DNA of 64,000 bases from Eubacteriales bacterium (GTDB lineage Bacteria; Bacillota; Clostridia; Oscillospirales; JAAYXM01). The stretch spans positions 16,798 to 80,797 of the forward strand of contig JAZRPG010000027.1 of the NCBI GenBank assembly GCA_045649105.1, written 5' to 3'. The position numbers and the translations under genes were made by a program. The notes beneath the pieces are model-generated. The model saw nothing but the letters and a program-made list of their open reading frames with translations, ran no database searches and was not told where the DNA came from. Shown piece after piece: positions 12,035 to 64,000 of the stretch. Each line of letters begins with the position of its first letter. Position 1 is the stretch's first letter.

Positions 12035-12072
12035 AAAAAAGGACTTCATTGTTTTACAATGAAGTCCTTTTT
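12035..12072. terminator. bidirectional intrinsic terminator
   Basis: AAAAAGGACTTCATTG / CAATGAAGTCCTTTTT stem with a 5-nt loop, between convergent genes. Confidence 0.8.
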
Positions 12073-12084
12073 AAAAACTAAAAA

Positions 12085-13263
12085 TCAGACAGAGCGCTTT
12101 AACTCATCAGCCTTATCAAGGCGCTCCCAGGGAAGGTCAAGCTCGGGCCGTCCGAAATGGCCGTATGATGCCGTTTGCAAATATATCGGGCGGCGAAGAT
12201 CAAACTGCTCAATTATTTTTGCGGGGCGCATATCAAAGTGCTCAGTGACTATCCTTGAAAGAGTTTCGTCAGAAATAATTCCTGTGCCGAATGTATCAAC
12301 AAATACAGAAACGGGATTTGCCACTCCGATAGCATACGCAAGCTCAATTTCGCAACGCTCGGCAAGGCCTGCAGCGACAATGTTTTTTGCAATGTATCTC
12401 GCCATATAAGCAGCGGACCTGTCGACCTTTGTTGGGTCCTTACCTGAGAAGCAGCCGCCGCCGTGACGTGCAAAACCGCCATAGGTATCTACGATGATTT
12501 TGCGTCCGGTAAGACCGGAATCTCCTCGGGGACCGCCGACAACGAATCTTCCGGTCGGATTTATAAGGAATTTCGTTTCCGAATCTATGTAGCGCTCCGG
12601 TATGACAGGAAGAATGACATGCTTTTTGACAGCATCACGAAGTGCAGAAAGTGAAATTGTGTCATAATGCTGTGTGGAAACGACAATCGTATCACAGCGC
12701 TTTACTTTGTTGTTTTCATATTCAAAGGTTACCTGTGCCTTGCCGTCAGGGCAGAGAAAGTCAAGTTCACCGGATTTTCTGACACTTGCAAGTCTCTTCG
12801 TAAGGTTGTGCGCAAAGGTAATTGGCGCCGGCATAAGCTCCTTTGTTTCATTACACGCATAGCCGAACATCATACCCTGGTCTCCTGCGCCGATTTTGTC
12901 AGCAAAATCGTGGGGCTTGTCCTTGAACTCGGAAGAGTTGTCAACGCCGAGAGCGATATCAGGTGACTGCTCATCAATAGATGTTATGACGGAGCAAGTC
13001 TGGGAATCAAATCCCATGGCAGGATTGTTATATCCGATATCGAATATTGTTTTGCGAACGGTAGCAGGGATATCTACATAACAATCAGTTGTGATTTCAC
13101 CCATTACAAGAGCCATGCCTGTTGTTACTATGCTCTCGCACGCTACTCTTGCGTTCGGGTCATGCTCAATGATTGCATCAAGAATAGAATCGGAAATCTG
13201 GTCACATACCTTATCGGGATGTCCCTCGGTTACCGATTCGGAAGTAAATTTAAATAAAGACAT
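12085..13263 (-). CDS. metK: S-adenosylmethionine synthetase
   Basis: [21 protein letters not shown]-terminus and GGGAFSGKD-like GGGCFSGKD motif. Real start is M22 of the track ORF, with a GGAGA SD upstream. Confidence 0.97.
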
Positions 13264-38854: not shown

Positions 38855-38862
38855 ATAAGCAT

Positions 38863-38911
38863 AAAAACACCGTATATCTGCACTATAGAAAGCGGATATA
38901 CGGTGTTTTTT
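38863..38911. terminator. bidirectional intrinsic terminator
   Basis: AAAAACACCGTATATC / GATATACGGTGTTTTT stem between convergent genes. Confidence 0.8.
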
Positions 38912-38924
38912 CAGTAATTTAATT

Positions 38925-39599
38925 TTAATCCTTTATTAAATCGCGGATTACTTCGCCGGCAAGCATCAGGCCTGCGCAACCAACTGTCCAGACAGCGCTT
39001 CCGGGAGTTCTGGTTTTTACAACAGGTAATTCGTCCGAATACACAGTTTTTAAGCTGTAAATGCCGCGGGACTTAAGTTCTTTTCTTATGACGCGTGCCA
39101 GAGGACAGGTGGTTGTTTTAGAAATGTCTGCAACCTTAAAGGCGCCACCGTCAAGCTTGTTTCCGGCGCCCATTGCAGAAATAATCGGAATGTTTCGCTT
39201 CTTTGCCTCGCAAATCAAATCTACCTTATCTGTCACAGTGTCTATAGCATCAATTATGTAATGCGGATTTTTTGAGAAAAACATCTCGCTGTTTTCGTGG
39301 GTATATCGCTCACACATAGGGAAAACATTAAGATTCGGGTTTATGTCAAGAAGCCGCTGCGCGGTGACGAGCGCCTTCTCTTTTCCTAAAGTGCTAGATA
39401 ATGCACAAAGTTGTCTGTTTATATTTGTGTCCTGCACAAAATCAAAATCAACAACCGTTATGGTGCCCACTCCGGAGCGCACAACAGCTTCAGCGGCATA
39501 TCCTCCGACGCCTCCGACACCAAAAATCATTATGTGCTTGCCGGACAGCTTTTTTAAAGCGTCTTCTCCGATAAGCATTTCAAGTCGTTTAAAAATCAT
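38925..39599 (-). CDS. tcdA: tRNA threonylcarbamoyladenosine dehydratase (ThiF/E1-like)
   Basis: GVGGVGGYAAEAVVRSGVG nucleotide-binding motif. Length and domain pattern match TcdA/YrvM. Confidence 0.8.
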   Translation of the reverse strand: MIFKRLEMLIGEDALKKLSGKHIMIFGVGGVGGYAAEAVVRSGVGTITVVDFDFVQDTNINRQLCALSSTLGKEKALVTAQRLLDINPNLNVFPMCERYTHENSEMFFSKNPHYIIDAIDTVTDKVDLICEAKKRNIPIISAMGAGNKLDGGAFKVADISKTTTCPLARVIRKELKSRGIYSLKTVYSDELPVVKTRTPGSAVWTVGCAGLMLAGEVIRDLIKD

Positions 39600-39821: not shown

Positions 39822-39879
39822 GAATAGATTATAACATACTCGTTTTATCAATTACAATACGGAGCATGTCCGCAAAAGA

Positions 39880-40161
39880 CTATTCGTCTTCCTCGAGAGC
39901 TTCTTCCATAAAGGCGTTGTATACGGTTTCGAGCTCTTCTTCATTATCCAGTGTGGATAATATTTCCTCTCCGTTTTCATCCTTATCGAGGCGCAAAATT
40001 ATAATCTCTGTAGCCTCCTCAGAATCTTCAGGAATTCCTGCCTCGACAAATGCGAGATAAATGTTTGAATTAAGCTCTATAGTATCAAGATGCTCAAATT
40101 CATGCTCAATATTCTCTTCATCTGTAAGTGTTACGATATTTGCGCTAAAATCTTTGTCCAT
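39880..40161 (-). CDS. DUF1292-family acidic small protein
   Basis: IVTLTDEENIEHEFEHLDTIE...YLAF pattern and a highly acidic C-terminus. Start is ATG 40161 after AAAGGTG. Confidence 0.75.
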   Translation of the reverse strand: MDKDFSANIVTLTDEENIEHEFEHLDTIELNSNIYLAFVEAGIPEDSEEATEIIILRLDKDENGEEILSTLDNEEELETVYNAFMEEALEEDE

Positions 40162-40276
40162 TATTATCACACCTTTCTTTATATAATTAGGATACCTCTT
40201 TAATTTGAATAAATCAATAGAAAAATTTTTATAAAAAAATATTTTTGTAAAAATTCATATAATAGCTATATTTTGG

Positions 40277-40305
40277 TTGACTTTTAGAAATTTAAGTGAT
40301 ATACT
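40277..40305 (+). promoter_or_regulatory. promoter of the infC-rpmI-rplT operon
   Basis: TTGACT, 17 nt, TATACT. Confidence 0.6.
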
Positions 40306-40311
40306 ATTATA

Positions 40312-40454
40312 CGTTAGAATAAAGCAGGGCACATCCCGCCCTCACCTCCAGCTATGTAAAGAGGTAAACATTGTCTTTTTTGTTTTCGGCGTATTGCCGA
40401 TTGCATTTCAGAATTGTTGAGCGCGGGCATTTGTTGCTTGCGCTCTTTAGTTTT
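40312..40454 (+). promoter_or_regulatory. L20-leader-type attenuator upstream of infC
   Basis: ~150-nt structured leader ending in an 11-bp stem (GAGCGCGGGCA / TTGCTTGCGCTC, 40419-40445) plus TTTAGTTTT, directly before the infC SD. Confidence 0.55.
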
Positions 40455-40468
40455 GGAGGTGCTTTAGT

Positions 40469-40996
40469 ATCAGCAAGTTAGAACATCAAATCAATGAGGA
40501 AATCCGCGACAAAGAGGTTCGTCTTATCGATGCCGAAGGACAGCAGGTAGGCGTGGTTCCTATCGGAGAAGCCAACAGAATGGCGGAGGAGAGTGGTCTT
40601 GACCTTGTAAAAATCGCTCCGCAGGCAGTTCCTCCGGTGTGCCGAATCATGGACTATGGAAAGTTTAAATTCGAGCAGGATAAGAGAGAAAAGGAAGCGC
40701 GGAAAAATCAGCGCGTCATAGATGTTAAGGAAGTACGAATGACGCCGAGCATTGATGTACACGACTTTGAAGTCAAAATGAATAATGCAATTCGTTTTTT
40801 GAAATCAGGCTGCAAGGTAAAAGTTGTTGTCCGTTTCAAAGGACGCGAGCTTGCACACACCAACTTGGGAACAGATCTTTTGAAGCGTTTTTCTGAGGGT
40901 TGTGCAGAGTTTTGCAATGTTGAGAAAATACCAAAGCTCGAAGGTCGCCAGATGATAATGTTCTTGTCTTCTAAAGTTCCACCAAAAACGAACTGA
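40469..40996 (+). CDS. infC: translation initiation factor IF-3, probable non-canonical ATC start
   Basis: Homology (ISKLEHQINEEIRDKEVRLID...) extends 28 codons upstream of the track ORF. GGAGG lies at 40455-59, and ATC is the only AUN/NUG codon in frame at suitable spacing. Confidence 0.85.
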   Translation: MSKLEHQINEEIRDKEVRLIDAEGQQVGVVPIGEANRMAEESGLDLVKIAPQAVPPVCRIMDYGKFKFEQDKREKEARKNQRVIDVKEVRMTPSIDVHDFEVKMNNAIRFLKSGCKVKVVVRFKGRELAHTNLGTDLLKRFSEGCAEFCNVEKIPKLEGRQMIMFLSSKVPPKTN

Positions 40997-41024
40997 TAAA
41001 CAATAAACGAGAGGAGAATTAATC

Positions 41025-41222
41025 ATGCCTAAAATCAAAACACACAGCGGTGCATCAAAGAGATTTAAGGTAACAAAGAACGGTAAGGTAAAAATAAACC
41101 GCGCAAATCGCCGTCATATCTTAAATAAGAAGAGCACAAAACTCAAAAGAGGTCTGCGTCATTCTGCGTATGCTTCTGCAGCAAATGAGGCAACACTCAA
41201 GCGTTTAGTACCTTATAAATAA
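41025..41222 (+). CDS. rpmI: 50S ribosomal protein L35
   Basis: [18 protein letters not shown]-terminus. Confidence 0.97.
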
Positions 41223-41249
41223 AATTTACGGAAATGGAGGCTGTTTAGA

Positions 41250-41603
41250 ATGGCTAGAGTTAAAGGCGCAATGATGACGCGCAAAAGAAGAAAAAAGATA
41301 TTAAAGCTCGCAAAGGGCTATTGGGGTGCAAAATCCAAACACTTTAAGATGGCTAATCAGGCTGTTATGAAGTCACTGACATATGCATATGTCGGACGTA
41401 AGCTTAAAAAGCGTGATTTCCGCCGTATTTGGATAACAAGAATTTCTGCAGCAGCAAAGCAGAATGATATCAATTATTCTCGCTTTATGAACGGTTTAAA
41501 GAAATGTAACATAAGCATTAACAGAAAAATGCTTGCAGATATGGCTCACAATGATCCGGTAGCATTTACAGCACTTGTTGAGTTGGTAAAAACAAAAATA
41601 TAA
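41250..41603 (+). CDS. rplT: 50S ribosomal protein L20
   Basis: [27 protein letters not shown]-terminus. Confidence 0.97.
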
Positions 41604-45330: not shown

Positions 45331-46368
45331 GTGGTGAAAAAATTGAATCGTGAAGAATTATTAAAGATGCCGACACTTGTTCGGGAGTTTGCAAATTATA
45401 TGGTTACGATAAACGACAAGTCACCCGGAACAATTAATGAATATATGCTTGATTTGCGCACATTTTTTAAATATATGAAAGTTCTTTACGGATTAGCTCA
45501 GATGTCCCCCGATGACGGTATTGCATCCATAGATATCAGTGACATTGATATTGAGTTTATAAGGAAAATCAAGCTAACAGATGTATATGACTATTTTAAC
45601 TATCTCTCTAACGATAAAAAGAAGTTCTATAATAGCGAAATTAATGAATATGGGCTTACAGCGTCCTCGCGTGCGAGAAAAGTTTCATCGCTCCGTTCCT
45701 TTTTTAAATACCTTTTAAAAACGCATGCTATTGAGGAAAATCCGATGGTTGAGCTTGAGTTTCCGAAATCACATAAGACGCTTCCGCATTATTTGACATA
45801 TGATGAAAGCGTAAAATTGCTCGAAAGTATAGTTGGCGAAAATAAGATTCGTGATTACTGTATTATTATGCTTTTTTTAAACTGCGGATTGCGTGTTTCT
45901 GAGCTTACCGGAATAAATATCGGAGACATCAAGGGCGATATGCTCAGAGTTATAGGAAAAGGACGAAAAGAACGCGTAGTCTATTTAAATGATGCATGTA
46001 TCGAGGCTGTGAATGACTATCTTGATGAACGGAAAAAGATAACTAATATTCCTGCTTCTGACGAAAAAGCTCTGTTTATCAGTAAAAAAAAGAACCGAAT
46101 CAGCTCGTCAACCGTCAAATGGCTTGTTAAAAAATATTGCAGTTACGCAGCTCTTGACCCGAAAATATCCGTACATAAACTCCGCCATACCTCTGCGACA
46201 TTAATGTACAGGAGCGGAGTTGATGTAAAGGTTCTGCAAGAGGTTTTAGGACATGAGCACTTAAATACTACAGAGATATACACACATACAGACAGTGAGG
46301 CACTCAGGACGGCTGCAAGGGCAAATCCCCTATCCCGCATGAAACCTAAAAAAGATTCTGAAGATTAA
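45331..46368 (+). CDS. tyrosine recombinase, XerC-like with an enlarged N-terminal domain (start uncertain)
   Basis: Catalytic signature GLRVSEL, HKLRHTSAT and LGHEHLNTTEIYTH. There is no convincing SD at GTG 45331; ATG 45367 is an alternative start. Confidence 0.85.
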   Translation: MVKKLNREELLKMPTLVREFANYMVTINDKSPGTINEYMLDLRTFFKYMKVLYGLAQMSPDDGIASIDISDIDIEFIRKIKLTDVYDYFNYLSNDKKKFYNSEINEYGLTASSRARKVSSLRSFFKYLLKTHAIEENPMVELEFPKSHKTLPHYLTYDESVKLLESIVGENKIRDYCIIMLFLNCGLRVSELTGINIGDIKGDMLRVIGKGRKERVVYLNDACIEAVNDYLDERKKITNIPASDEKALFISKKKNRISSSTVKWLVKKYCSYAALDPKISVHKLRHTSATLMYRSGVDVKVLQEVLGHEHLNTTEIYTHTDSEALRTAARANPLSRMKPKKDSED

Positions 46369-46370
46369 AT

Positions 46371-46416
46371 AAAAGGCGATATATTTTGATTTTAAGTCAA
46401 ATATATCGCCTTTTTT
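46371..46416. terminator. bidirectional intrinsic terminator
   Basis: AAAAGGCGATATATTT..GA / TCAAATATATCGCCTTTT stem between convergent genes. Confidence 0.8.
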
Positions 46417-46436
46417 GTACTAAAAATAAATAAAAA

Positions 46437-47273
46437 TCAATTTTTTGTTACTTGTTCAAGCATGTATTTCTTTATGATTCCATATGTCGAAAACGATACC
46501 GAGAAGCGACACAAGGAGAAAAAGAGCGCGACTACTAAAACGACATCAATTTTGGGTGTGGATGTAAACGAAATGGTTATTACAAATATTATAAGTAACG
46601 CAACAATGTTTCTGAAAAAGCCTAAAACGCAAAATATAAGAGAATTTTTTAGTATATCTTTAAGCTTTAATTCAAAGGTGACGGAAATTGTATAAGTATA
46701 AAAACGCATACAGAAGTATATTACAAATGCAATTATTGCTACAATTTTGATGAATTTGTAAAAGATAATGCTTCCGCCTTCTAAGACTGAAAAATCTGAT
46801 GCAAGATACATTAGAAAGCACAGTAGAGCAACAATATCTAAAATTCCAAGAGCGAGGCCCTGCTTAAAATTAGACTTACATCTTGTAAACAGGTCAGTAA
46901 ACCATACATGCTTTTCGTCTGCTAAATTTCTTGATACATATGTTAGTCCTGCTGTCAACGGTCCGTAAACAATTGCCGAAATCACGAAAAGAACAATGAA
47001 TACCGGAGGTGTCAGTGTGTTTATAAGCCACAGAGCTGCGCGTATAAAAAATACACTTTCAACAACTTGCGCAGATATATTAAAGAAACTGCAAGCCAAG
47101 TAAATGAATCCGCAAACAAGGGGGAAAACACATGCTAAATACATGATATTAAACATAACCAGTTTGCTGAATTTGCGATATAATAACTCGAAATATCTGA
47201 AAAAAGCTCGTTTTTTTCTTGGTTCACTATCGCTGCTTATCTTAACATCGGAAAATTTGTTTAGGAACGACAT
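46437..47273 (-). CDS. DUF624 (YesL-like) membrane protein
   Basis: 278 aa, polytopic. N-terminal FFRYFELLYRKFSKLVMFNIMYL pattern is typical of YesL. Confidence 0.6.
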   Translation of the reverse strand: MSFLNKFSDVKISSDSEPRKKRAFFRYFELLYRKFSKLVMFNIMYLACVFPLVCGFIYLACSFFNISAQVVESVFFIRAALWLINTLTPPVFIVLFVISAIVYGPLTAGLTYVSRNLADEKHVWFTDLFTRCKSNFKQGLALGILDIVALLCFLMYLASDFSVLEGGSIIFYKFIKIVAIIAFVIYFCMRFYTYTISVTFELKLKDILKNSLIFCVLGFFRNIVALLIIFVITISFTSTPKIDVVLVVALFFSLCRFSVSFSTYGIIKKYMLEQVTKN

Positions 47274-52888: not shown

Positions 52889-52982
52889 TAAAAGAAACTA
52901 CTTTAATAAATAATAACACGCAGCAACATGTAATGTCAACAATTTAGCTGTGAAAAAACGACATAATACAAAGGAAAATAGT

Positions 52983-54005
52983 ATGAAAAAGTCAGATTTT
53001 AGTTTTGAGTTACCGGAGGAACTTATTGCGCAGACTCCTGTTAAAAAGCGCGATTCTTCAAGACTCCTTGCTTTAAAGAAAGATACAGGTGTTGTATCGC
53101 ATCATCACTTTTGCGATGTTTTGGATTTCCTTAAACCGGGTGATTGTCTTGTACTTAATGATTCAAAGGTAATCCCTGCCCGCTTATTCGGCGAGAGAAA
53201 AACCGGTGGTGCGGTGGAGGTTCTTCTTCTTAAAAACATATCGGGAAACTTATGGGAAACGTTGACGCGTCCCGGCAGAAAAACAAAGCCGGGCGAGGAA
53301 ATATATTTTAATAACGGGCTTCTTCGTGCTGTCGTCCGTGAAGAAGCTGAAGACGGAAAACGTATTGTTGAGTTTTTCTATGACGGGGTTTTTCTCGAGA
53401 TTCTGGAAAAAATCGGTCAGATGCCTCTACCTCCATACATACACGAGAGGCTTGAAAATCCGGATCGCTACCAAACTGTTTACTCAAAAAATATCGGCTC
53501 TTCTGCGGCACCTACTGCAGGTCTGCATTTTACTGATGATCTTCTTGATGCAATAAGAAAAAAAGGTATAAATATTGCATTTGTAACGCTTCATGTAGGG
53601 CTTGGTACATTCAGGCCGGTAAAGGCAGATGATATCAGGGACCATATAATGCATTCGGAGTATTATGAAATCCCGGAAGAGTCTAAAAAAATAATAGAAA
53701 AAACGAAGCGCGCAGGCGGAAGGGTTATAGCAGTCGGAACAACTTCATGCAGAACTCTTGAGTCAGCATTTTCAGAAAGCGGAGAAATTGAAAAGCCGTT
53801 TGGTGATACAAGTATATTTATTTATCCGGGCTATAAATTCAAAGCTGTCGATGCATTGATTACAAATTTCCATCTCCCCGAAAGTACGCTTATAATGCTC
53901 GTCTCTGCACTTGCCGGGCGCACTAATGTTTTGAATGCATACAAAATTGCAATAGAAGAAAAATATCGTTTTTTCAGCTTCGGCGATGCAATGTTCATAT
54001 ATTAA
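52983..54005 (+). CDS. queA: S-adenosylmethionine:tRNA ribosyltransferase-isomerase
   Basis: [13 protein letters not shown]-terminus, PLPPYI and [10 protein letters not shown] motifs. Start is M12 of the track ORF. Confidence 0.95.
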
Positions 54006-54019
54006 GTGAGGTAAAATCC

Positions 54020-55150
54020 ATGTTTGAAATAAAACTAAAATCCCAAAAAGCACGGCGAGGTGTTTTCAAAACACCTCACGGTGAGATACAGACGCCTGTT
54101 TTTATGAATGTTGCAACTCAAGGAGCAATAAAAGGCGGACTCTCGGCACTTGATTTAAAAAATATATCTTGCAAAACCGCGCTTTCCAATACATATCATC
54201 TTCACCTTCGTCCCGGCGAGGATATTGTAAAGAAAATGGGCGGGCTTCACAAGTTTATGATGTGGGACGGTCCGATTCTTACTGACAGTGGCGGGTTCCA
54301 GGTGTTTTCACTGGCATCTCTTCGCAATATTGAAGAAGAAGGTGTTACATTTGCGTCTCATATAGACGGACGGAAAATATTTATGTCTCCTGAAATATCA
54401 ATGCAGATACAGTCGGCTCTCGGTTCTGATATTGCAATGGCCTTTGACGAGTGTGTGGAAAATCCGTCACCGTATGAATATGTAAAAAATTCCTGCGAGA
54501 GAACAACGCGTTGGCTTGCGCGATGCAAAACTGAGCTTGAAAGACTAAACAGCGCAGATGACTGCGTTAACCCCGGTCAGATGCTCTTTGGAATCAATCA
54601 GGGCGGAACATATGAGGACTTAAGAATAAAGCATATGCTCGAGATCAGCAAGCTTGATTTACCGGGTTATGCAATAGGCGGACTTGCTGTAGGAGAAAGT
54701 ACCGAAGATATGTACAGGATTATAGATGCAGTTGAGCCATACATGCCCGAGGACAAGCCGAGATATCTTATGGGTGTCGGCACACCTACAAATATAATTG
54801 AAGGTGTGGCGCGCGGTATTGACTTTTTTGATTGCGTCCTCCCTGCCAGAAATGCACGACACGGACATCTTTTTACGGAATGTGGCTGTATTAATATAAA
54901 TAATGAAAAATATAAAGATGACCCGCTCCCGATTGATCCTGAATGCGACTGCCCTGTCTGCAGGACATATTCACGCGCTTATATAAGACATCTTATACGC
55001 GCAAAGGAAATGCTTGCTATGCGCCTGTGCGTAATGCATAATCTTTATTTCTATAATAAGCTCGCAGAGAGAATTAGAACTGCCCTTGATAAGGGAGAGT
55101 TTGATGCGTTCAGAGAAACTTACTCAGGAAAATTCGACAAAAGAATATAA
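54020..55150 (+). CDS. tgt: queuine tRNA-ribosyltransferase
   Basis: LTDSGGFQ motif and the zinc site CDCPVC...H. Confidence 0.96.
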   Translation: MFEIKLKSQKARRGVFKTPHGEIQTPVFMNVATQGAIKGGLSALDLKNISCKTALSNTYHLHLRPGEDIVKKMGGLHKFMMWDGPILTDSGGFQVFSLASLRNIEEEGVTFASHIDGRKIFMSPEISMQIQSALGSDIAMAFDECVENPSPYEYVKNSCERTTRWLARCKTELERLNSADDCVNPGQMLFGINQGGTYEDLRIKHMLEISKLDLPGYAIGGLAVGESTEDMYRIIDAVEPYMPEDKPRYLMGVGTPTNIIEGVARGIDFFDCVLPARNARHGHLFTECGCININNEKYKDDPLPIDPECDCPVCRTYSRAYIRHLIRAKEMLAMRLCVMHNLYFYNKLAERIRTALDKGEFDAFRETYSGKFDKRI

Positions 55151-55168
55151 ATTTCATAAAGAAAGGAT

Positions 55169-56863
55169 ATGTGCAAGTTGAAAAAGCTATTAATCGCTTT
55201 TGTTATATCTACATTTTTTATTCTTGCGGCACATGCAGCGCCTGATGCAAACCCGACAGTTCGTGTCGGTCTTTATTACAACAAAAATGCGCTCCCGTCC
55301 GCAAATTTGCAAAATATTGACGGGCTCGGCTATAGATTTGGCTTTTTTGACTCTACGCATAACTTTATTTCACAGTTTTCCATATCCGACAAAAATCGCA
55401 TAAGCATGCTTAAGGATATGAATATGTACTATTATGATGGTGTTTTTTACGAGTCCGGACAGCCTTCCGGTAGCAAATTTATCGGTGCATATCATCTCCA
55501 GCTTGACACATCGTACAGCACGCAGGACGAGGCAAAATCTATGGCCTCTTCTCTGAAAATGCAAGGTATTCCGGCGTTTGTCGCCGTTTCGGCAAATACA
55601 TACAGAATCCGTATCGGTTCGTACGCCTCATTGACAGAGGCTCTTCCTGACACAATGAAGTATCTCAGTGTAGGAACGACAAGTGTTGTCGGTGCTTCTG
55701 CACAGTGTGTAACGGTTGTTGATACCTCTGACGGAACAATTTTCTTTGAATACGACAACAAGACAAGCCTTGGTGTGTACCCGTCTCTCGGCGAGGTCTC
55801 TATGCCTCTTACTTGGTTTAAGGGCTATAAATATTACGGTGGTTTTCAGTATATACGCGACACGGGAAACATATCTGTCATAAACTTCGTTCCCATGCAG
55901 CAGTATGTAATGGGTGTAATTCCGTATGAAATGTCGCCCAAATGGCCTATTGAGGCACTTAAGGCACAGGCAATGTGCGCGAGAACATATGCACTTTATA
56001 ATTACGGAAAACACGGGAAGGATTTTGATGTATGCGCTACTACCGACTGTCAGGTCTATAGCGGCGCAGGCTCTGCTACGGAAAACTCAAACCGTGCAGT
56101 AGACGAAACATACGGAGCATATATACTGTATGACGGAAAGCCGATAAATGCAGTTTTTCACTCATCCGACGGCGGTGCCACGGAGGATTCCGAAAATGTA
56201 TGGTCTGCAGCACTCCCCTACCTCAGAGGTGTTTATGACTCGAATGAGGATTTGGACAGCTCAATAAACGGAAGATGGTCATATGATTATTCTCCGCAGG
56301 AGCTCACATATATACTTAATTCAAAAGGATATGAGTGTGGCCTTATTGCAGACATGTATGTAAAAGAATTTACTGCAATGGGTAATGTAAAGACACTTAC
56401 AGTTGTAGATATCAACGGAAAGGTGATGAATTTTTCCAAAGAACGCGCAAGAACAATACTTTACAGCTCAACATATAAAAAGTATACACACAGCCAGAGA
56501 TATACCGTAACAAAAACAGGAGCGGGCTCTGACGCTTCAAAAAAACTGTATATTAATGGCGGTGGCAGTGTAGACCTTATGTTTGATACGGTATTTGCCG
56601 TCGGAAATGGTGGCATAGTATCGCGCCTTACTGATAAAAACATCTCGATAATAACGGCAACGGGTAAAACCACCTTTGGTGAGGATTCAAGAACATCCGC
56701 GACGTCCGGCCCCACTGTATTCAGAGTATCCGGAACAGGCTGGGGACATAATGTCGGTATGAGTCAGAACGGTGCAAAGGCACTTGCACTGGCGGGAAAA
56801 ACGGCAGAAGAGATAATCAATTTTTATTACACCGATGTAGATATTTATAAGGCAACTTATTAA
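55169..56863 (+). CDS. SpoIID/LytB-domain protein with an N-terminal SPOR-like domain
   Basis: EALKAQAMCARTYAL and FHSSDGGATE motifs of SpoIID, plus a signal/anchor sequence. TTG 55178 is a possible alternative start on SD spacing. Confidence 0.8.
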   Translation: MCKLKKLLIAFVISTFFILAAHAAPDANPTVRVGLYYNKNALPSANLQNIDGLGYRFGFFDSTHNFISQFSISDKNRISMLKDMNMYYYDGVFYESGQPSGSKFIGAYHLQLDTSYSTQDEAKSMASSLKMQGIPAFVAVSANTYRIRIGSYASLTEALPDTMKYLSVGTTSVVGASAQCVTVVDTSDGTIFFEYDNKTSLGVYPSLGEVSMPLTWFKGYKYYGGFQYIRDTGNISVINFVPMQQYVMGVIPYEMSPKWPIEALKAQAMCARTYALYNYGKHGKDFDVCATTDCQVYSGAGSATENSNRAVDETYGAYILYDGKPINAVFHSSDGGATEDSENVWSAALPYLRGVYDSNEDLDSSINGRWSYDYSPQELTYILNSKGYECGLIADMYVKEFTAMGNVKTLTVVDINGKVMNFSKERARTILYSSTYKKYTHSQRYTVTKTGAGSDASKKLYINGGGSVDLMFDTVFAVGNGGIVSRLTDKNISIITATGKTTFGEDSRTSATSGPTVFRVSGTGWGHNVGMSQNGAKALALAGKTAEEIINFYYTDVDIYKATY

Positions 56864-56977
56864 ATTGTAAATTTCTTCTTGGCTATTGCATTTTAACCTA
56901 AATACTGGTAATATATATGTATGTGATTTTGTATGTCATATCACACGAAAAATATTGACATTGAGAGGATGTACCCA

Positions 56978-57409
56978 ATGAACAAAAAACGTATTCTTTC
57001 ATTTATTGCAGTAGTTATGGTTCTTTTGTCAATGCTTCCAATGGCTTTTGCAGCTCCGGAGGTTGCCGGTGACGCAGCTAATGGTGAACCTCTTCCCTGG
57101 TATGCGGCTTCCGGTATTATACAGTTTGCGCCGATAGTTATCATGGTGCTTGTGTTTTACTTTTTCCTCATTCGTCCTGAGAATAAGAGAAAAAAGGAAA
57201 CCGCTCAGATGCGTGATTCTCTGAAGGTCGGCGACAAGGTTGTTACAATCGGAGGTATCATAGGTCGCATTGTCAAGGTTAAGGACGATGAGATTTTCCT
57301 CGAGACAAGCACAGACAAAAATAAATTGGTATTTAAAAAATGGGCAATAAGCAGTGTTGAAAAAGCTGCTGAAAAAGCTCCGGAGAAGGAATCTGAAGAC
57401 GCCGAATAA
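56978..57409 (+). CDS. yajC: preprotein translocase subunit YajC
   Basis: FYFFLIRPENKRKKE...LKVGDKVVTIGGIIGRIVKV signature. Start is M16 of the track ORF. Confidence 0.88.
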   Translation: MNKKRILSFIAVVMVLLSMLPMAFAAPEVAGDAANGEPLPWYAASGIIQFAPIVIMVLVFYFFLIRPENKRKKETAQMRDSLKVGDKVVTIGGIIGRIVKVKDDEIFLETSTDKNKLVFKKWAISSVEKAAEKAPEKESEDAE

Positions 57410-57487
57410 TCATTCTGATTAATTTCGCATTAATCTTACCCCTGCCGAATATTAATATAACAGATATTTTTCGGGGGTGGATTAAAA

Positions 57488-57892
57488 ATGAACAAAAAAG
57501 AGGATTCCGTCAGAGCTACATCACCTGCACCGATTTTATTTTTGGTATATTGTGCATTCGGCCTCATTTTAAGCATTGTGTTGTCCTTTGTGACAGCTAT
57601 GCTTATTTCTGCCGAGACGCTCCCCGCTTCCGCTGTTGAAGCTGTTGCGTACATCAGTGCATTTATTGGTGCATTTTTTGCAAGTTTTATTTCTGCCAAA
57701 AAATTCGGGAGAGCTATTCTTTCTGCATTACTTCAAGGCTTAATCTTTTTTGCGGCACTTTATCTTACGGGTGCTATATTTTTTGGAAGATTAATGCCGG
57801 GCAGCGCTTCCCTAGGGGTATTTCTTGCGTGCTTGTTTGGCTCTGTATTTTCAGGTATGCTCGCTGCCTGCGGTAAAAAACGCAGGCGCTGA
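57488..57892 (+). CDS. small polytopic membrane protein, possibly TIGR04086/YrzE-like
   Basis: 134 aa with 4 TM helices and GGGGTGG as SD. Confidence 0.5.
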   Translation: MNKKEDSVRATSPAPILFLVYCAFGLILSIVLSFVTAMLISAETLPASAVEAVAYISAFIGAFFASFISAKKFGRAILSALLQGLIFFAALYLTGAIFFGRLMPGSASLGVFLACLFGSVFSGMLAACGKKRRR

Positions 57893-57928
57893 GATAAAAA
57901 CATCTTATCTACGAAAGGAAAATTTACA

Positions 57929-58075
57929 ATGGAACACATTAAGACAATCAGTAAAGCTGTTTTAAAGAAGAGCGCAGCTCATGGCGGTTGCGGAGAGTGC
58001 CAGACATCATGCCAGTCTGCATGCAAAACATCTTGCACGGTTGCGAACCAGAAATGTGAGCGGAATAAAGACTAA
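57929..58075 (+). CDS. scfA: SCIFF (six-cysteine) ranthipeptide precursor, 48 aa; not in the supplied ORF track
   Basis: My own translation gives MEHIKTISKAVLKKSAAHGGCGECQTSCQSACKTSCTVANQKCERNKD, which contains the SCIFF core GGCGECQTSCQSACKTSCTV. An AAAGGAA SD lies upstream and the maturase gene follows immediately downstream. Confidence 0.9.
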   Translation: MEHIKTISKAVLKKSAAHGGCGECQTSCQSACKTSCTVANQKCERNKD

Positions 58076-58092
58076 TTTTCTGTTCAGACATG

Positions 58093-58127
58093 AAACGGAT
58101 TGTTGCTTTGCGACAGTCCGTTTTAAT
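58093..58127 (+). terminator. intrinsic terminator/attenuator between scfA and scfB
   Basis: AAACGGATTGTTGC TTT GCGACAGTCCGTTT forms a ~14-bp stem followed by TTTAATT. Confidence 0.65.
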
Positions 58128-58153
58128 TAGTCTTATATCATGGAGGATTTTTA

Positions 58154-59509
58154 ATGATACATACATACTCTCTTGGCGGTTACAATATCGCCGTTGATGT
58201 AAACAGCGGAGCTGTACATGCCCTCTCAAACTGTGCATATGATGTGTTGAACATATTAGAGCCGCCTCTTGATTCGGCCTGTCCTGAAAATATTTTCAAA
58301 AAACTGACATCATACAGCCATGATGAGATAAAAAGTGCTTATGATGAGCTATATAACCTCTATAAAGAAGGAATGCTGTTTGCGGACGATGACTATATCG
58401 ATATAAAAGGAGCACTTCCTGAAAATGCCCCGCTTAAGGCTCTTTGTCTCCATATTGCGCATGACTGCAATCTGAGATGCAAGTATTGCTTTGCCTCTAC
58501 GGGTGACTTCGGAACCGGCAGAAAACTCATGCCATTTGAGGTTGCAAAGGCGGCAATTGACTTTGTTATAAAGCGCTCAATGTCACGTCGTAATATAGAG
58601 ATTGACTTTTTTGGTGGCGAGCCGCTCATGGGCTTTGAAACCGTTCGTAAAACTGTCGAATATGCAAAGGAACAGGCAAAAATACATGGAAAGCATTTTC
58701 GCTTTACACTTACAACCAACGGTGTGCTTTTAAATGATGAGATTATAGAATACATCAATCGCGAAATGTCAAATGTCGTTCTCTCTCTCGATGGCAGACC
58801 TGAGGTAAACGACGCTGTAAGACCTGCGGCAAACGGCAAAGGAAGCTATGACATTATAGTTCCTAAGTTTAAAAAATTGGTCGATAACAGAGACAAGTCG
58901 CGCGATTACTATGTCAGAGGGACTTTTACAAGAGATAATATTGATTTCACAAATGATGTTCTTCACATTGCAGACCTTGGATTTTCCGAGCTTTCCATAG
59001 AGCCGGTTGTCGCCGAGGCAGAATCTCCATATTCTCTGCGTGAAGAAGATTTCGATAAAATTTGCGCTGAGTATGATAAGCTTTCTGAAATTATGAAGGA
59101 GCGCAAGGATTTCAGATTCTTCCACTTCCTTGTTGACCTTGATCAGGGTCCATGCATAATAAAGCGAGTGCGCGGATGCGGAGCCGGATATGAGTATGCG
59201 GCAATCTCTCCGGAGGGAGATGTTTATCCATGCCATCAGTTTGTCGGAAAACCTGAGTACCTTATGGGAAATGTGCTTGAAGATACACTGGATAAAGACA
59301 TTTCAAAGAAGTTTATGGGTCAGAATGTGTTTACGCGCAAAGAATGCCGGAATTGTTGGGCAAAATACTACTGCAGTGGCGGATGCAGCGCGGCAAACCT
59401 TAATATGAACAATGATTTGAGCGTACCGTATGAATACGCTTGCCGTTTAGAGCGCAAACGCCTTGAGTGTGCAATAATACTGAAAGTTCATGAGTCGCTA
59501 AATTCATAA
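58154..59509 (+). CDS. scfB: radical SAM/SPASM thioether-forming SCIFF maturase
   Basis: CNLRCKYC radical-SAM motif, a C-terminal SPASM Cys cluster (CGAG...PCHQF, CRNCWAKYYCSGGC) and adjacency to scfA. Confidence 0.9.
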   Translation: MIHTYSLGGYNIAVDVNSGAVHALSNCAYDVLNILEPPLDSACPENIFKKLTSYSHDEIKSAYDELYNLYKEGMLFADDDYIDIKGALPENAPLKALCLHIAHDCNLRCKYCFASTGDFGTGRKLMPFEVAKAAIDFVIKRSMSRRNIEIDFFGGEPLMGFETVRKTVEYAKEQAKIHGKHFRFTLTTNGVLLNDEIIEYINREMSNVVLSLDGRPEVNDAVRPAANGKGSYDIIVPKFKKLVDNRDKSRDYYVRGTFTRDNIDFTNDVLHIADLGFSELSIEPVVAEAESPYSLREEDFDKICAEYDKLSEIMKERKDFRFFHFLVDLDQGPCIIKRVRGCGAGYEYAAISPEGDVYPCHQFVGKPEYLMGNVLEDTLDKDISKKFMGQNVFTRKECRNCWAKYYCSGGCSAANLNMNNDLSVPYEYACRLERKRLECAIILKVHESLNS

Positions 59510-59534
59510 ATACTTATTCCGGAGAGTGTTTTGT

Positions 59535-60770
59535 ATGAAGGAACTTAACATCTCAATACCTCAATATGTTGCGGAAATTATTTCACTGCTCGAATCCGGT
59601 GGTTTTGAAGCATATGTTGTAGGGGGATGCGTGCGTGATAGCCTGCTTGGAGTTTTAGCACATGACTGGGATGTATGTTCTTCTGCACTGCCAGAGGAGG
59701 TGCAAAGACAACTCTGCGGATTTAAAGTAATAGAAACGGGAATTGCACACGGAACGGTTACTGCTGTAAAAAACGGAGAAATATGCGAGATAACCACATT
59801 TCGTAACGATGGTGATTATACTGACCACCGGCGGCCGGATTCGGTTTCTTACACAAAAAATATAGAAAATGACTTAAAGCGTCGTGACTTTACAATAAAT
59901 GCTATGGCCTACTCCCCTGTCAGAGGTATGATAGATTTATTCGATGGTGAAAAAGACCTGAGCAAGCGCGTCATAAGATGCGTCGGCGACCCTGAAAAGC
60001 GCTTTGACGAGGACGCTCTTCGCATTATGCGTGCGCTTAGATTTTCTTCTACGCTCGGTTTTTCTATAGAAGAAAAAACAGCCGATGCAATGCTTGCCGG
60101 CGCAGGACTTCTGCAATATATTGCAAGGGAGCGAATCAACAGTGAACTGTCCGGGATTCTTTGCGGAGCTAATGTTTCGGATATATTGATTAAATGTAGG
60201 CAGATTTTTAAGGAGCTGTTCGGTGATTTCTTAGTATCTGACTCATGGAATGTTATTGCAGAAACGGTAGGCCGTGCTCATCCGAATTTAATACTGCGCC
60301 TTTCTCTCCTTCTTGATTTGGTACCACTACCCGATGCGATAAATTTTTTGCACGAGCTCAGATTTGATAAAAAAACAATTTCAGGCGTATCATTTTTGCT
60401 CAAAAACCGGGATTTTACTCCTGCTTGCAATGATATATCTCTGAAAAAAATGTTGTCTGAATTCGGAATTGAAAACTCAAGGATGCTTGTTCAATCCAAA
60501 ATTGCAAAAGAACCAAAAAACATAGATTTAAAATCAATATGCGATACAATGGAGACGATAATTAAAAATCCGCCACCGCTAAGAATCGAGGAGCTTGAAA
60601 TCAACGGCAACGATTTGATGAAGCTGGGAATTCCCGAAGGTAAAAAGATAAGAGAAATTCTCATGTTTGCACTTGATTCTGTGCTTTCCGGAAAGGTGCC
60701 AAATGACAGGACAGAATTGCTTCAATATTTAGTTACAAATAAAAACAAAAACATTTTTAAAGATATATAA
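59535..60770 (+). CDS. cca: CCA-adding tRNA nucleotidyltransferase
   Basis: GGCVRD and RRDFTINA motifs. ATG 59535 lies 8 nt after GGAGAG. Confidence 0.88.
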   Translation: MKELNISIPQYVAEIISLLESGGFEAYVVGGCVRDSLLGVLAHDWDVCSSALPEEVQRQLCGFKVIETGIAHGTVTAVKNGEICEITTFRNDGDYTDHRRPDSVSYTKNIENDLKRRDFTINAMAYSPVRGMIDLFDGEKDLSKRVIRCVGDPEKRFDEDALRIMRALRFSSTLGFSIEEKTADAMLAGAGLLQYIARERINSELSGILCGANVSDILIKCRQIFKELFGDFLVSDSWNVIAETVGRAHPNLILRLSLLLDLVPLPDAINFLHELRFDKKTISGVSFLLKNRDFTPACNDISLKKMLSEFGIENSRMLVQSKIAKEPKNIDLKSICDTMETIIKNPPPLRIEELEINGNDLMKLGIPEGKKIREILMFALDSVLSGKVPNDRTELLQYLVTNKNKNIFKDI

Positions 60771-60840
60771 TTTTTACCCCGTTTTTCTTTTGAAATACGG
60801 GGTAAATTACTGTTGATTTAAACTTTTTACTTATAAGAGC

Positions 60841-60869
60841 TTGACAAAAAGGTTACAATAGGTTACAAT
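60841..60869 (+). promoter_or_regulatory. promoter of the yabE-like gene
   Basis: TTGACA, 17 nt, TACAAT. The -10 lies inside a tandem GGTTACAATA repeat. Confidence 0.6.
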
Positions 60870-60870
60870 A
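60851..60870 (+). repeat. tandem 10-bp direct repeat GGTTACAATA x2
   Basis: Exact tandem copy. An inverted near-copy TTATTGTAATCC lies at 60899-60910. Confidence 0.9.
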
Positions 60871-60973
60871 ACAACAATGTGTGAAACAATTTTGGGAGTT
60901 ATTGTAATCCTGATACAAATTTTGACATATACTTGTAACAGCTTGTTTTCACACATTTACAAGGAGGCAATTT

Positions 60974-62011
60974 ATGTCAGCAAAAGTTCGAAGTATACCA
61001 CATATGTTTATATCTCTGCTTTCACGCAGACCGGTTATTATTTCCCTCGTTTGTGTAATTACTGTGTTTTGTATAGCAGCTTCCCTTTCGTCTATGAACA
61101 CATTTATTGTTTATGACGGTGACAATGTTTCTGTTTTAAACAGCAGTGTTACATGCTGCAGCGATGCTCTTAATGAAATGGGAATCTCGCTTGACGCAAA
61201 TGACTATGTCGAAATGCCGGATAAGCCTGTAGGCGGTATTGCAAAAATACGCATACACCGTAAAAAGGAAGTCACCGTAAACATCGGAACATCTTCCAAA
61301 GTTCTCCTTGCCGAAAATGAAAGAGATGTTTCATCATTACTTTTAAATAACGGTATAGAGCTATCGGAGCACGATGTTCTTTCACTCCCCGCAGATTCAC
61401 CTGTAACAGATGGCATGTCAGTCAGTATAACCCGTGTTTCCTATTCCACATCAGAGGAGCATAAGGATATTGACTTTAAAAAGACACGGCGTGCATCAGC
61501 TTCTCTTGAAGCAGGTAAAGAACGAGTAGTTCAAAAGGGCGTAAAAGGCAAAAATAAGCTCGTATATAAGATAAAAACTGAAAACGGCAATGTAACAGGC
61601 AAGGAGCTTGTTAGTGAGACCGTTGTCAAGGAACCTGTAAATCAAATCGTTGAGTATGGAACAAAAAAGGTTTCAAACCCCGGAACGGTCACGACATTTT
61701 CAGGAGAAAAGCTTAAGTACAAAAGAGTCTTAAATGTTACAGCCACTGCATACACAACCGAGCGCAGTTCCGACAAGATAACGGCAACAGGAAAAGTCGC
61801 GCGCGTTGGACTTGTCGCTGTAGACCCGAAAGTTATTCCCCTTGGTTCAAAGCTTTATATAGTCTCGGCCGACGGAAAGAGCTGGTCTTACGGTACCGCA
61901 GTTGCCGCTGATACGGGCGTCAAAGGAAATAAGATAGATTTGTTTTATAACACTTATAATGAATGTATAAGCTTTGGCAGACGGAAAGCAAAGGTTTATG
62001 TTCTTGAATAG
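60974..62011 (+). CDS. YabE-like cell-wall protein (DUF348 / G5 / 3D domains)
   Basis: N-terminal TM anchor, a G5-like segment (VVQKGVKGKNKLVYK) and a C-terminal 3D domain (TATAYT...VAVDPKVIPLGSKLYI...AADTG). Sits next to rsmA, as yabE does in B. subtilis. Confidence 0.8.
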   Translation: MSAKVRSIPHMFISLLSRRPVIISLVCVITVFCIAASLSSMNTFIVYDGDNVSVLNSSVTCCSDALNEMGISLDANDYVEMPDKPVGGIAKIRIHRKKEVTVNIGTSSKVLLAENERDVSSLLLNNGIELSEHDVLSLPADSPVTDGMSVSITRVSYSTSEEHKDIDFKKTRRASASLEAGKERVVQKGVKGKNKLVYKIKTENGNVTGKELVSETVVKEPVNQIVEYGTKKVSNPGTVTTFSGEKLKYKRVLNVTATAYTTERSSDKITATGKVARVGLVAVDPKVIPLGSKLYIVSADGKSWSYGTAVAADTGVKGNKIDLFYNTYNECISFGRRKAKVYVLE

Positions 62012-62129: not shown

Positions 62130-62996
62130 ATGGATTTATTTTCGGTAAAGAGTATTCGCGAAATACTTTCAAGGCATGGCTTTAAGTTTTCAAAATCACT
62201 CGGTCAGAATTTTCTTACTGAGAGATATGTTTGTGAGCAGATTGCGGAGCTTTCAGGGCTGTCTGATAAAGAATGCGTGTTGGAGATAGGTCCCGGCCTC
62301 GGAAGCCTGACAAGTGAGCTTGCAAAGCGTTCAGGCAAGGTTGTAACTGTAGAGATTGACCGCGCCCTTCTCCCCGTACTTAACGAAACCCTTGCCGAGT
62401 ATGAGAATATAACGGTAATAAGCGGTGACATTTTAAAGTGTGATTTGCCGCAGCTTATCGAGCGGGAGTTCGGGAGTTTAAAGCCAAAAGTATGTGCAAA
62501 CCTTCCCTATTATATAACAACACCGGTCATTTCACGGCTTATTGATTCAAAGCTTTTTTCCTCTATAACAACAATGATACAGAAAGAGGTTGCTGACCGT
62601 ATTTGCGCAAAACCGGGTACATCTGATTACGGTGCATTTTCAGTTTATGTACAGTATTATACTGAACCTGAGTTTTTATTTGATGTTCCTGCAACCTGCT
62701 TTGAGCCGCAACCAAAGGTGAACTCTGCTGTAGTAATGCTCAAAATGCGGGATGTCCCCCCTGTTTTGCCAAAATCAGAGGAACTGTTTTTTAAAGTCGT
62801 CAAAGCATCCTTCGCACAGCGGAGAAAACAGCTTGTAAACGGTCTTTTTTCGGCATTCAGCTCTCTTGTTTCAAAAGAGGAAATACTTGATATCCTCGTC
62901 TCATCAGGGCAAAAGATTACGGTAAGAGGCGAAGAACTCGGACTGGCTCAATTCTGTAATATTTCCGACAGGCTTTATGACATTATATATAAATAA
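62130..62996 (+). CDS. rsmA: 16S rRNA (adenine1518/1519-N6)-dimethyltransferase
   Basis: LGQNFL N-terminal motif, EIGPGLGSLT SAM motif and NLPYYITTP. Confidence 0.95.
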   Translation: MDLFSVKSIREILSRHGFKFSKSLGQNFLTERYVCEQIAELSGLSDKECVLEIGPGLGSLTSELAKRSGKVVTVEIDRALLPVLNETLAEYENITVISGDILKCDLPQLIEREFGSLKPKVCANLPYYITTPVISRLIDSKLFSSITTMIQKEVADRICAKPGTSDYGAFSVYVQYYTEPEFLFDVPATCFEPQPKVNSAVVMLKMRDVPPVLPKSEELFFKVVKASFAQRRKQLVNGLFSAFSSLVSKEEILDILVSSGQKITVRGEELGLAQFCNISDRLYDIIYK

Positions 62997-63010
62997 TAAA
63001 ATATTGCATT

Positions 63011-63049
63011 AAAAAACAGCGCAAGACTTAAATATCTTGCGCTGTTTTT
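63011..63049. terminator. bidirectional intrinsic terminator
   Basis: AAAAACAGCGCAAGA / TCTTGCGCTGTTTTT stem between convergent genes. Confidence 0.8.
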
Positions 63050-63057
63050 ATCATTAA

Positions 63058-64000
63058 TTAGTCAGAAACAACTACTCGATGATATGTTTTTTTGCCTTTC
63101 TTTATCATTATTCCACCGTCTTTAACATCATCAAGTGAAACGCTTGCTGTAATGTCGCATACCTTTACATCATTAATTTCCAATCCACCCTGTGTAATTA
63201 CTCTTTTTGCCTCTGAACGCGACGGAGTAAGTGAGCAACGGACAAGAAGCTCAGCTACAGGGATACCTTCCGAAAGCTCTGATGAGGGGATTTCCGTCTG
63301 CGGCATATTTCCGCCGCCTGACTGTGATTTAAAGAGCGCAACTGCCGCTTCTTGTGATTTTTTTGCTTCTTCTTCACCGTGTACCATCTGAGTCATCTCA
63401 AAAGCAAGACGCTCTTTTGCAGTGTTAAGCTCGCTTCCTGACAGCTTCTCGTATTCGGCAATTTCATCAAGCGGTACAAACGTCAACATCTTCATGCATC
63501 TGATGACATCATCATCGCGTACATTGCGCCAATACTGATAAAATTCATACGGAGATGTTTTTTCAGGGTCAAGCCACACGGCACCCTTTTCTGTTTTTCC
63601 CATTTTTTTGCCTTCAGTTGTTGTGAGCAGCGTAAATGTCATACCGTATGAATCCTCTGCGTGAATACGCCTGATAAGCTCCGTGCCGCCGAGAATGTTT
63701 GCCCACTGGTCGTCTCCGCCACACTCGAGTCTGCAACCATATTTTTCAAAGAGGTTGAGATAGTCATAGCTTTGCATAAGCATATAGTTAAATTCAATGA
63801 ATGTAAGACCACGCTCAAGACGACTCTTGAAGCATTCAGCGGTAAGCATACGGTTTACAGAAAAGTGAACGCCGATTTTGCGTAAGAATTCAAGATAATT
63901 CAATTTGAGTAACCAGTCAGCATTATTAACCATTATAGCATCATCGTCGCCGAATTTTATGAAACGGCTCATCTGCTTCTTAAAACGCTCTGCGTTTGCC
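63058..64000 (-). CDS. tyrS: tyrosyl-tRNA synthetase, C-terminal ~313 aa (5' end outside the window)
   Basis: KMGKT (KMSKS) motif, GGDDQWANI and a C-terminal S4 domain. The frame stays open through base 64000 (...[12 protein letters not shown]...). Confidence 0.93.

Follow-up and report, generated by a model that had tools for sequence, protein, structure and literature searches.

Does a 48-codon open reading frame (ORF) that ordinary annotation passes over encode a modified peptide, and what does the hairpin that follows it do? Both questions are raised by a short locus in a 64,000-nucleotide (nt) stretch of contig JAZRPG010000027.1 from an Eubacteriales bacterium; this whole stretch is called the window below. 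An initial annotation, made from the letters of the window alone, had proposed that the ORF (scfA) encodes a SCIFF (ranthipeptide) precursor, that the next gene (scfB) encodes its radical-SAM maturase, and that the hairpin between them acts as an attenuator. We find that scfA-scfB is a genuine but unremarkable representative of the SCIFF pair, which is well known from clostridia, and we consider it likely that in this canonical pair the hairpin partially terminates or stabilises transcripts, such that precursor mRNA exceeds maturase mRNA.

The plus-strand ORF from ATG 57929 to TAA 58075 translates exactly to MEHIKTISKAVLKKSAAHGGCGECQTSCQSACKTSCTVANQKCERNKD, the 48-aa peptide quoted in the initial annotation. 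The hidden Markov model (HMM) search proposed there placed the peptide in the SCIFF family with 80.7 bits against TIGR03973 (cut-off 50), and PF13165 gave 84.2 bits (cut-off 27), with residues 3-44 spanning the entire SCIFF model. A leader of about residues 1-20, with GG at its end, precedes core cysteines at positions 21, 24, 28, 32, 36 and 43 (spacing CxxCxxxCxxxCxxxC...C). The thioether donor Cys32 and the acceptors Thr34 and Thr37 are all present, and a Shine-Dalgarno (SD)-like GAAAGGA lies 9 nt 5' of the gene. The six cysteines, Thr34, Thr37 and the block CQSACKTSCTV.NQ are invariant in 83 of 83 scfA orthologues. Moreover, scfA stands immediately 5' of scfB in 78 of the 80 genome loci that were retrieved via ScfB, the remaining 2 being truncated by contig ends; in the window, 78 nt separate the two genes.

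Codon comparison with two relatives was used to ask at which level the ORF is conserved. Compared to L081, the locus of the closest relative (ScfB 86% identical), the peptide is identical and the genes show 13 synonymous and 0 non-synonymous codon differences; compared to a second relative (L082), there are 15 synonymous versus 2 non-synonymous differences. An opposite reading sees in the 48 codons a frame open by chance, or a pseudogene, and takes a 96-aa antisense ORF overlapping both scfA and scfB for the true gene. It could appeal to the plain ORF track, which shows only this longer ORF at scfA, and to the absence of the 48-aa peptide from the protein collection described below. We regard it as next to impossible, given SCIFF scores far over the cut-offs, the purely synonymous differences from L081, and the stop codons (1-10 each) that interrupt the matching antisense frames in L081-L084. 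The antisense ORF is thus not conserved in relatives, and it is spurious, as had been proposed. Because of the HMM scores, the bias towards synonymous changes and the invariant core, we conclude, on the strength of these sequence comparisons, that scfA is a genuine gene under protein-level selection.

The gene had been described as hidden, and so it is in public calls. Its exact 48-aa sequence was not found in a collection of about 15 billion proteins, which contains both ScfB and the upstream membrane protein of the same 181-kb contig. It is likewise uncalled in the two closest relatives, L081 (5779-5925) and L082 (5777-5923), where the uncalled ORFs encode an identical or near-identical 48-aa peptide, and it is called in L083-L087. 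The three uncalled copies point to a systematic annotation gap in this lineage. Gene callers overlooked scfA because it has just 48 codons, and its hidden status is an annotation artefact of a gene of this size rather than biology.

The product of scfB, a 451-aa protein with a CNLRCKYC motif and a Cys-rich C-terminus, had been taken for a CteB-like maturase, and this assignment was borne out. The proposed TIGR03974 search gave 663.4 bits (cut-off 425), whereas the score of 579 against the NCBI orphan exception model 'not_ScfB' (NF040492) is under that model's cut-off of 855. PF13186 and TIGR04085 both match the SPASM region. Among solved structures, the best match is CteB (PDB 5WGG/5WHY; E = 5e-167, residues 1-447, 54.9% identity). 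The SPASM domain of ScfB/CteB maturases has two auxiliary [4Fe-4S] clusters, AC1 with three cysteines and an open site and AC2 with four cysteines. In ScfB, the radical-SAM CX3CX2C motif (C105-N-L-R-C109-K-Y-C112) aligned to CteB C104/C108/C111, the AC1 ligands C342/C360/C411 to CteB C344/362/413, and the AC2 ligands C398/C401/C407/C430 to CteB C400/403/409/432. All 10 Fe-S ligand cysteines of CteB, as listed in PMC10177961, are therefore kept. ScfB residues 1-90 align to the N-terminal peptide-binding (RiPP recognition element, RRE) region of CteB without large gaps, and conserved positions in this part include H3, G9, N11 and DVNSGAVH. The nearest ScfB relatives are 86%, 77% and 72% identical (GCA_052840445.1, GCA_054281175.1 and GCA_054295265.1, respectively). 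By these alignments, ScfB is a full-length CteB orthologue.

We next consider the spacer between the two genes. A consensus scan located an intrinsic-terminator-like hairpin at 58091-58125, which the initial annotation had noted at 58093-58127. It starts 15 nt after scfA and contains 16 pairs (6 G-C, 3 G-U), a 3-nt loop and then TTTTAATT, with a folding energy (dG) of -20.9 kcal/mol. The core stem, anchored by G/C, spans 58096-58120 around the loop TTT (58107-58109); the first Ts are paired with an A-tract at 58093-58095. The fold is far more stable than expected from composition: the 84-nt spacer folds at -27.5 kcal/mol, compared to -13.05 +/- 3.04 kcal/mol for 200 dinucleotide shuffles, none of which was as good (z = -4.75). 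In the consensus scan of both strands from 54000 to 61000, the hairpin heads the list of terminator-like sites and exceeds all the others in its number of pairs. Window-wide, it ranks 7th of 20 terminator-like hairpins after 56 genes and is similar to the terminators at convergent gene ends. Four convergent gene pairs in the window share strong bidirectional terminator hairpins of -19 to -24 kcal/mol (38854-38925, 46368-46437, 62996-63058 and 12034-12085), and the host organism clearly uses intrinsic terminators. By contrast with scfA, none of the genes before it in the string (queA, tgt, the SpoIID-like gene, yajC and the TIGR04086 gene) has a terminator-like hairpin behind it in the window terminator census. 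No Rfam model matched the scfA-scfB region at gathering score; a permissive scan gave only an opposite-strand VqmR match (E = 0.76), which is meaningless.

The hairpin is also maintained in evolution. In seven close relatives, 91% of alignment cells are paired, compared to 34-52% when the partners are slid, and 6 of the 16 pairs have changed on both sides (G-C to A-U, U-A to C-G and A-U to G-C). The covariation score of 0.377, against 0.254 in shuffles, was matched by 0 of 500 shuffles. A qualifying hairpin (single, dG of -10 kcal/mol or lower, with 5 or more T among the 8 nt directly after the stem) occurs in 70 of 84 scfA-scfB spacers (83%) from diverse Clostridia, and the stems have no common sequence. 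By the same definition, hairpins turn up in 2% of dinucleotide shuffles, in 4% of windows from the scfB coding sequence, in 7% of regions upstream of scfA and in 23% of regions downstream of scfB. Many of the family hairpins carry long unbroken T-runs. By the family medians, the hairpin begins 22 nt past the scfA stop, has a stem of 11 bp and ends 34.5 nt before the scfB start. Taken on sequence and predicted structure, the hairpin is a real, covarying, family-wide feature that is correctly placed for an attenuator.

How would such an element produce an excess of precursor mRNA? The proposed course is that scfA closes a co-directional housekeeping string (queA-tgt-SpoIID-like-yajC-TIGR04086-scfA), and that RNA polymerase would have to read past the hairpin to express scfB and cca. 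Many transcripts would stop, or be stabilised, at the hairpin, a fraction would continue through scfB-cca, and the outcome would be more precursor mRNA than maturase mRNA. The argument that scfB must be transcribed through the hairpin comes from the gap between hairpin and scfB ATG, which at 28 nt has room for the U-tract and the SD but no promoter; moreover, a consensus scan found no plus-strand sigma-70-like match in 57900-58154. The interrupted U-tract fits incomplete termination, although it is no proof of it. The attenuator role put forward in the initial annotation is supported by the hairpin geometry and by the conservation in the family, from which we infer partial termination and the transcript ratios. 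Precursor mRNA usually exceeds the mRNA of the modification genes in many other operons for peptides that are ribosomally synthesised and then modified post-translationally (RiPPs). Such operons (for example lantibiotic or sactipeptide ones) likewise have a stem-loop after a short precursor gene and then a promoterless modification gene; they differ from the locus in the window in that the precursor gene is first in a dedicated regulated cluster, whereas scfA is last in a housekeeping string.

Several points weigh against this account. The U-tract TTTTAATT is short and broken, so that termination could be of low, high or intermediate efficiency. Scanning for consensus promoters is a crude method, which could overlook a promoter within scfA or one that an alternative sigma factor recognises. 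Furthermore, 14 of the 84 loci lack a qualifying hairpin, which implies that it is not obligatory, and the searchable literature contains no report of transcripts, 3' ends or proteomics for the scfA-scfB hairpin of any SCIFF locus. Finally, with respect to the product, the position and number of thioethers are disputed for CteA, with Thr37 found in vitro versus Thr34 in vivo (PMC8326336).

The tail of the hairpin bears on a different mechanism with the same outcome. The hairpin might serve as a stem that protects the 3' end once a long queA...cca transcript has been processed by endonucleases, such that a stable short RNA ending with scfA and a less stable scfB RNA arise through decay and not through termination. 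Processing with a protective hairpin is known for other RiPP precursor transcripts, most operon-end terminators of the window have a stronger U-tract, and conservation of the stem would be expected equally of a stabiliser. We nevertheless judge this explanation unlikely, since the T-rich tail is itself enriched: the family figure of 83% requires at least 5 T in 8 nt, which would be superfluous for a pure stabiliser, and many family members have long unbroken T-runs. At the other extreme, the hairpin could be a complete terminator of yajC-TIGR04086-scfA, with scfB-cca expressed from a promoter of their own inside scfA or the hairpin. The stability of the hairpin, which equals that of true operon-end terminators in the window, and the strong SD of scfB (GGAGG) are consistent with this idea. 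It is very improbable in our view, given that the hairpin-to-scfB distance is so short (28 nt in the window and no more than 45 nt in 76% of the loci), that a promoter 5' of the hairpin would be terminated by the hairpin as well, and that the scan of this region found no promoter-like match. Partial termination or stabilisation therefore stays our preferred explanation.

A second structure was considered and rejected as a family feature. The minimum free energy fold of the window sequence pairs 58074-58083 with the scfB SD (58140-58149), enclosing the hairpin, and the probability that the SD is paired is 0.83, compared to 0.60 in the control. Such an anti-SD helix, formed between the U-rich segment after the scfA stop and the SD, suggested translational coupling. 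Across 73 loci there is no excess over shuffling: the probability that the SD is paired is 0.48, compared to 0.49 with the 18 post-stop nt shuffled (Wilcoxon p = 0.58), and the probability that it is paired with the post-stop segment is 0.158 compared to 0.157 (p = 0.18). The pairing in the window may be a lineage accident.

In 2011, Haft and Basu reportedly defined SCIFF peptides by bioinformatic means. In the proposed scheme, ScfB would bind the scfA leader (HIKT...GG) through its N-terminal peptide-recognition region, and the SAM-cleaving [4Fe-4S] cluster together with the two auxiliary clusters would form at least one Cys-to-Thr thioether. This link would be expected from Cys32 to Thr37 or Thr34, as in CteA and Tte1186a; we infer this chemistry, and likewise export and function, for the organism of the window. 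Tte1186 and CteB install one thioether each, which links Cys32 with Thr37 in vitro or, on co-expression, with the Thr34 gamma-carbon, and the class has been renamed ranthipeptides (PMC8326336, PMC8172795). The closest likeness is to CteA/CteB (thermocellin) of Clostridium thermocellum, which shares the Cys32/Thr34/Thr37 numbering, the CQSACKTSCTV core and all aligned cluster ligands; the window precursor differs in its leader (MEHIKTISKAVLKKSAAH...) and its C-terminal tail (ERNKD), and comes from an uncultured Clostridia metagenome-assembled genome (MAG). Tte1186a/Tte1186 of Caldanaerobacter subterraneus, the first SCIFF system characterised in vitro, carries a single Cys32-Thr37 link (PMC8326336) and has the same cluster-ligand scheme (PMC10177961), and is likened to the window pair through membership of one family. 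PapA/PapB (freyrasin) has a homologous radical-SAM/SPASM maturase, but ScfB scores 275 bits against the PapB model NF047865, under its cut-off of 340, and the scfA core is without the CX3D repeats that carry the six Cys-X3-Asp beta-thioethers of PapA, its acceptors being Thr and not Asp.

The initial annotation held that the physiological role of the family is unclear, which is partly outdated. Chen et al. 2020 (Biotechnol J) are cited as reporting a quorum-sensing- and sporulation-linked phenotype of scfAB knock-outs in solventogenic clostridia (PMC8326336, PMC8102284, bioRxiv 10.1101/2025.02.12.637840). According to PMC8102284, the knock-outs in C. beijerinckii and C. ljungdahlii had quorum-sensing-like effects, with sporulation genes down and agr up. 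The scfAB genes of these species belong to the same two-gene family and form the only system with a reported phenotype; we have no confidence in transferring function from them to this MAG. Across clostridial orders, at most one ranthipeptide cluster is found per species (bioRxiv 10.1101/2025.02.12.637840).

Features of the scfA-scfB region, with positions in the window and the basis of each assignment
Feature	Positions	Strand	Basis or remark
queA	52950..54005	+	upstream string; Pfam on syntenic genes L081-L087
tgt	54020..55150	+	upstream string; Pfam on syntenic genes L081-L087
SpoIID/LytB + SPOR protein, 564 aa	55169..56863	+	family matches; between tgt and yajC
yajC, preprotein translocase subunit	56933..57409	+	TIGR00739 89.5 bits (cut-off 44.2)
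TIGR04086/DUF3792 small multi-pass membrane protein	57488..57892	+	TIGR04086 33.4 (cut-off 30), PF12670 37.2 (cut-off 31.3)
scfA, SCIFF (ranthipeptide) precursor, 48 aa	57929..58075	+	TIGR03973, PF13165, codon comparison
spurious antisense ORF, 96 aa	57948..58238	-	ORF list; masked scfA in simple ORF track
intrinsic-terminator-like hairpin	58091..58125	+	consensus scan, folding, covariation
hairpin U-tract TTTTAATT	58121..58128	+	6/8 T, AA interruption after four; counted as a T-rich tail by the scan
scfB Shine-Dalgarno GGAGG	58142..58146	+	7 nt 5' of ATG, 16 nt past hairpin
scfB, radical SAM/SPASM thioether-forming SCIFF maturase (CteB orthologue), 451 aa	58154..59509	+	TIGR03974, CteB alignment
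cca, CCA tRNA nucleotidyltransferase	59526..60770	+	NF009814 293 bits (cut-off 290)
terminator-like hairpin after cca	~60775-60804	+	-16.7 kcal/mol
near-consensus sigma-70 promoter TTGACA-17-TACAAT, 11/12	60841-60869	+	promoter scan

The surroundings of the pair raise the further question of a partner. The gene 5' of scfA, which ends 36 nt before it, encodes a TIGR04086 (DUF3792) membrane protein, and in 49 of 78 loci (about 63%) an iterative HMM search found TIGR04086 on the scfA strand, no more than 350 nt 5' of scfA. The initial annotation had stated that no exporter, protease or immunity gene is adjacent; no recognisable gene of these types indeed stands beside scfAB, and in view of this recurrent neighbour the statement holds for known kinds of partner only. 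Of 72 loci whose upstream sequence extends over 1.5 kb or more, both yajC and TIGR04086 are present in 32, TIGR04086 without yajC in 13, yajC without TIGR04086 in 2 and neither gene in 25. A protein search with TIGR04086 covered 111 Clostridia proteins and is silent on Bacilli. Three loci were fetched via TIGR04086 alone; two of these read queA-tgt-yajC-DUF3792-SCIFF-rSAM-x-secD, and the third (L090) has DUF3792 near tgt-yajC without SCIFF.

From this recurrence one could argue that the functional unit comprises TIGR04086, scfA and scfB, with the membrane protein as a dedicated exporter, receptor or immunity partner. The adjacency persists in the 13 loci without yajC, the 9 of 9 such neighbours that were tested exceed the curated cut-off and are true TIGR04086 members, and SCIFF lies immediately 3' in two of the three loci fetched via TIGR04086. 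We think such a unit doubtful, however, as 25 of 72 loci carry scfAB with neither TIGR04086 nor yajC beside it, breaks between TIGR04086 and scfA (25) exceed those between yajC and TIGR04086 (13), and L090 keeps TIGR04086 near tgt-yajC without SCIFF. Common ancestry of the tgt-yajC...secDF string would account for the adjacency without a functional link. B. subtilis YrzE, beside yajC, presumably also belongs to DUF3792, in a genus that we take to be without SCIFF. No paper on TIGR04086/DUF3792 in bacteria was found in the searchable literature. On the evidence of gene order, TIGR04086 is a conserved upstream neighbour of SCIFF and a possible, unproven partner.

The gene string tgt-yajC-membrane protein-scfAB-cca had been given in the right order, with the omission of a SpoIID/LytB + SPOR gene between tgt and yajC; this gene sits 5' of queA in L083 and L085-L087, and so has moved within the string. 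The true start of yajC is probably ATG 56978, which follows GAGAGGA. Close relatives share asd(-)/queA/tgt/SpoIID-like/yajC/DUF3792/scfA/scfB, and cca, a G5/3D protein and ksgA lie 3' of scfB only in the two nearest relatives. In the window, cca begins 17-27 nt past the scfB stop, the window census found no terminator between scfB and cca, and cca is probably co-transcribed with scfB. The promoter listed last in the table precedes a 345-aa G5/3D-domain protein (60974-62011) and opens the next transcription unit. A compositional island was considered and rejected: the GC content of scfAB, 0.42, is the same as that of its flanks, there is no sign of recent transfer, and the housekeeping setting described in the initial annotation is upheld. 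No second SCIFF-like or Cys-rich precursor was found in the 64-kb window.

Downstream of the pair, 18 of 73 loci carry secD/secDF on the scfB strand, at most 1 kb 3' of scfB (L036, L051-L053, L055, L060, L064-L067, L069-L073, L075, L077 and L080), as do L088 and L089, two of the three loci fetched via TIGR04086; no secD was found in the 64-kb window. From gene order, scfAB looks like an insert in an ancestral tgt-yajC...secDF string, of which the window retains the upstream half. This picture agrees with the remark that the surroundings vary between isolates and the scfAB pair is conserved (PMC7738495). The repeated embedding between yajC/TIGR04086 and secDF is a hint that SCIFF could be connected with the envelope or with secretion.

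Apart from this locus, the sole gathering-score Rfam match in the window is a 6S RNA (SsrS, RF00013; 39609-39804, minus strand; 86.8 bits, gathering score 46.4). The adjoining region 39866-41603, which is without long ORFs, contains infC (IF-3; 40553-40996, listed start GTG), rpmI (41025-41222) and rplT (41250-41603). It also has a very acidic 96-aa protein (39880-40170, minus strand) and an AT-rich 16-nt tandem repeat (40221-40253), and the whole region is ordinary-looking.

What, then, does the locus add? The scfAB family, its chemistry, a structure and a proposed quorum-sensing role have been published already, and the locus is an unannotated member, in a typical neighbourhood, of a two-gene system that is near-universal in clostridia. 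It had been recommended as a useful subject; that it would be a specially useful one is not supported, as it stems from a MAG lineage that is not in culture, and cultured, genetically tractable Clostridia have equivalent copies in their core genomes. Its practical value is an annotation fix, in that the public gene calls for this genome and for the two relatives nearest to it lack a strongly conserved 48-codon gene. Two comparative results are mildly new and not particular to this window: the terminator-like hairpin of near-constant geometry that stands between scfA and scfB across the family, for which no paper linking SCIFF to a terminator or attenuator was found in the searchable literature, and the yajC-secDF embedding with its recurrent TIGR04086 neighbour.

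The hairpin predicts an imbalance of precursor over maturase transcripts. A broader proposal, which we put forward as a long shot, is that across Clostridia SCIFF does not form an independent secondary-metabolite cluster but is a fixed insert in the ancestral queA-tgt-yajC...secDF protein-export string, with the precursor as the last, terminator-capped gene of a constitutive housekeeping operon, a maturase kept scarce on purpose through read-through, and TIGR04086 as the missing membrane partner in export or sensing. If this were true, SCIFF would be a core peptide linked to the envelope or to secretion and made in large excess over its maturase, rather than a conventional quorum signal or bacteriocin, and the precursor excess could account for the cross-linking of one of the six cysteines in vitro.

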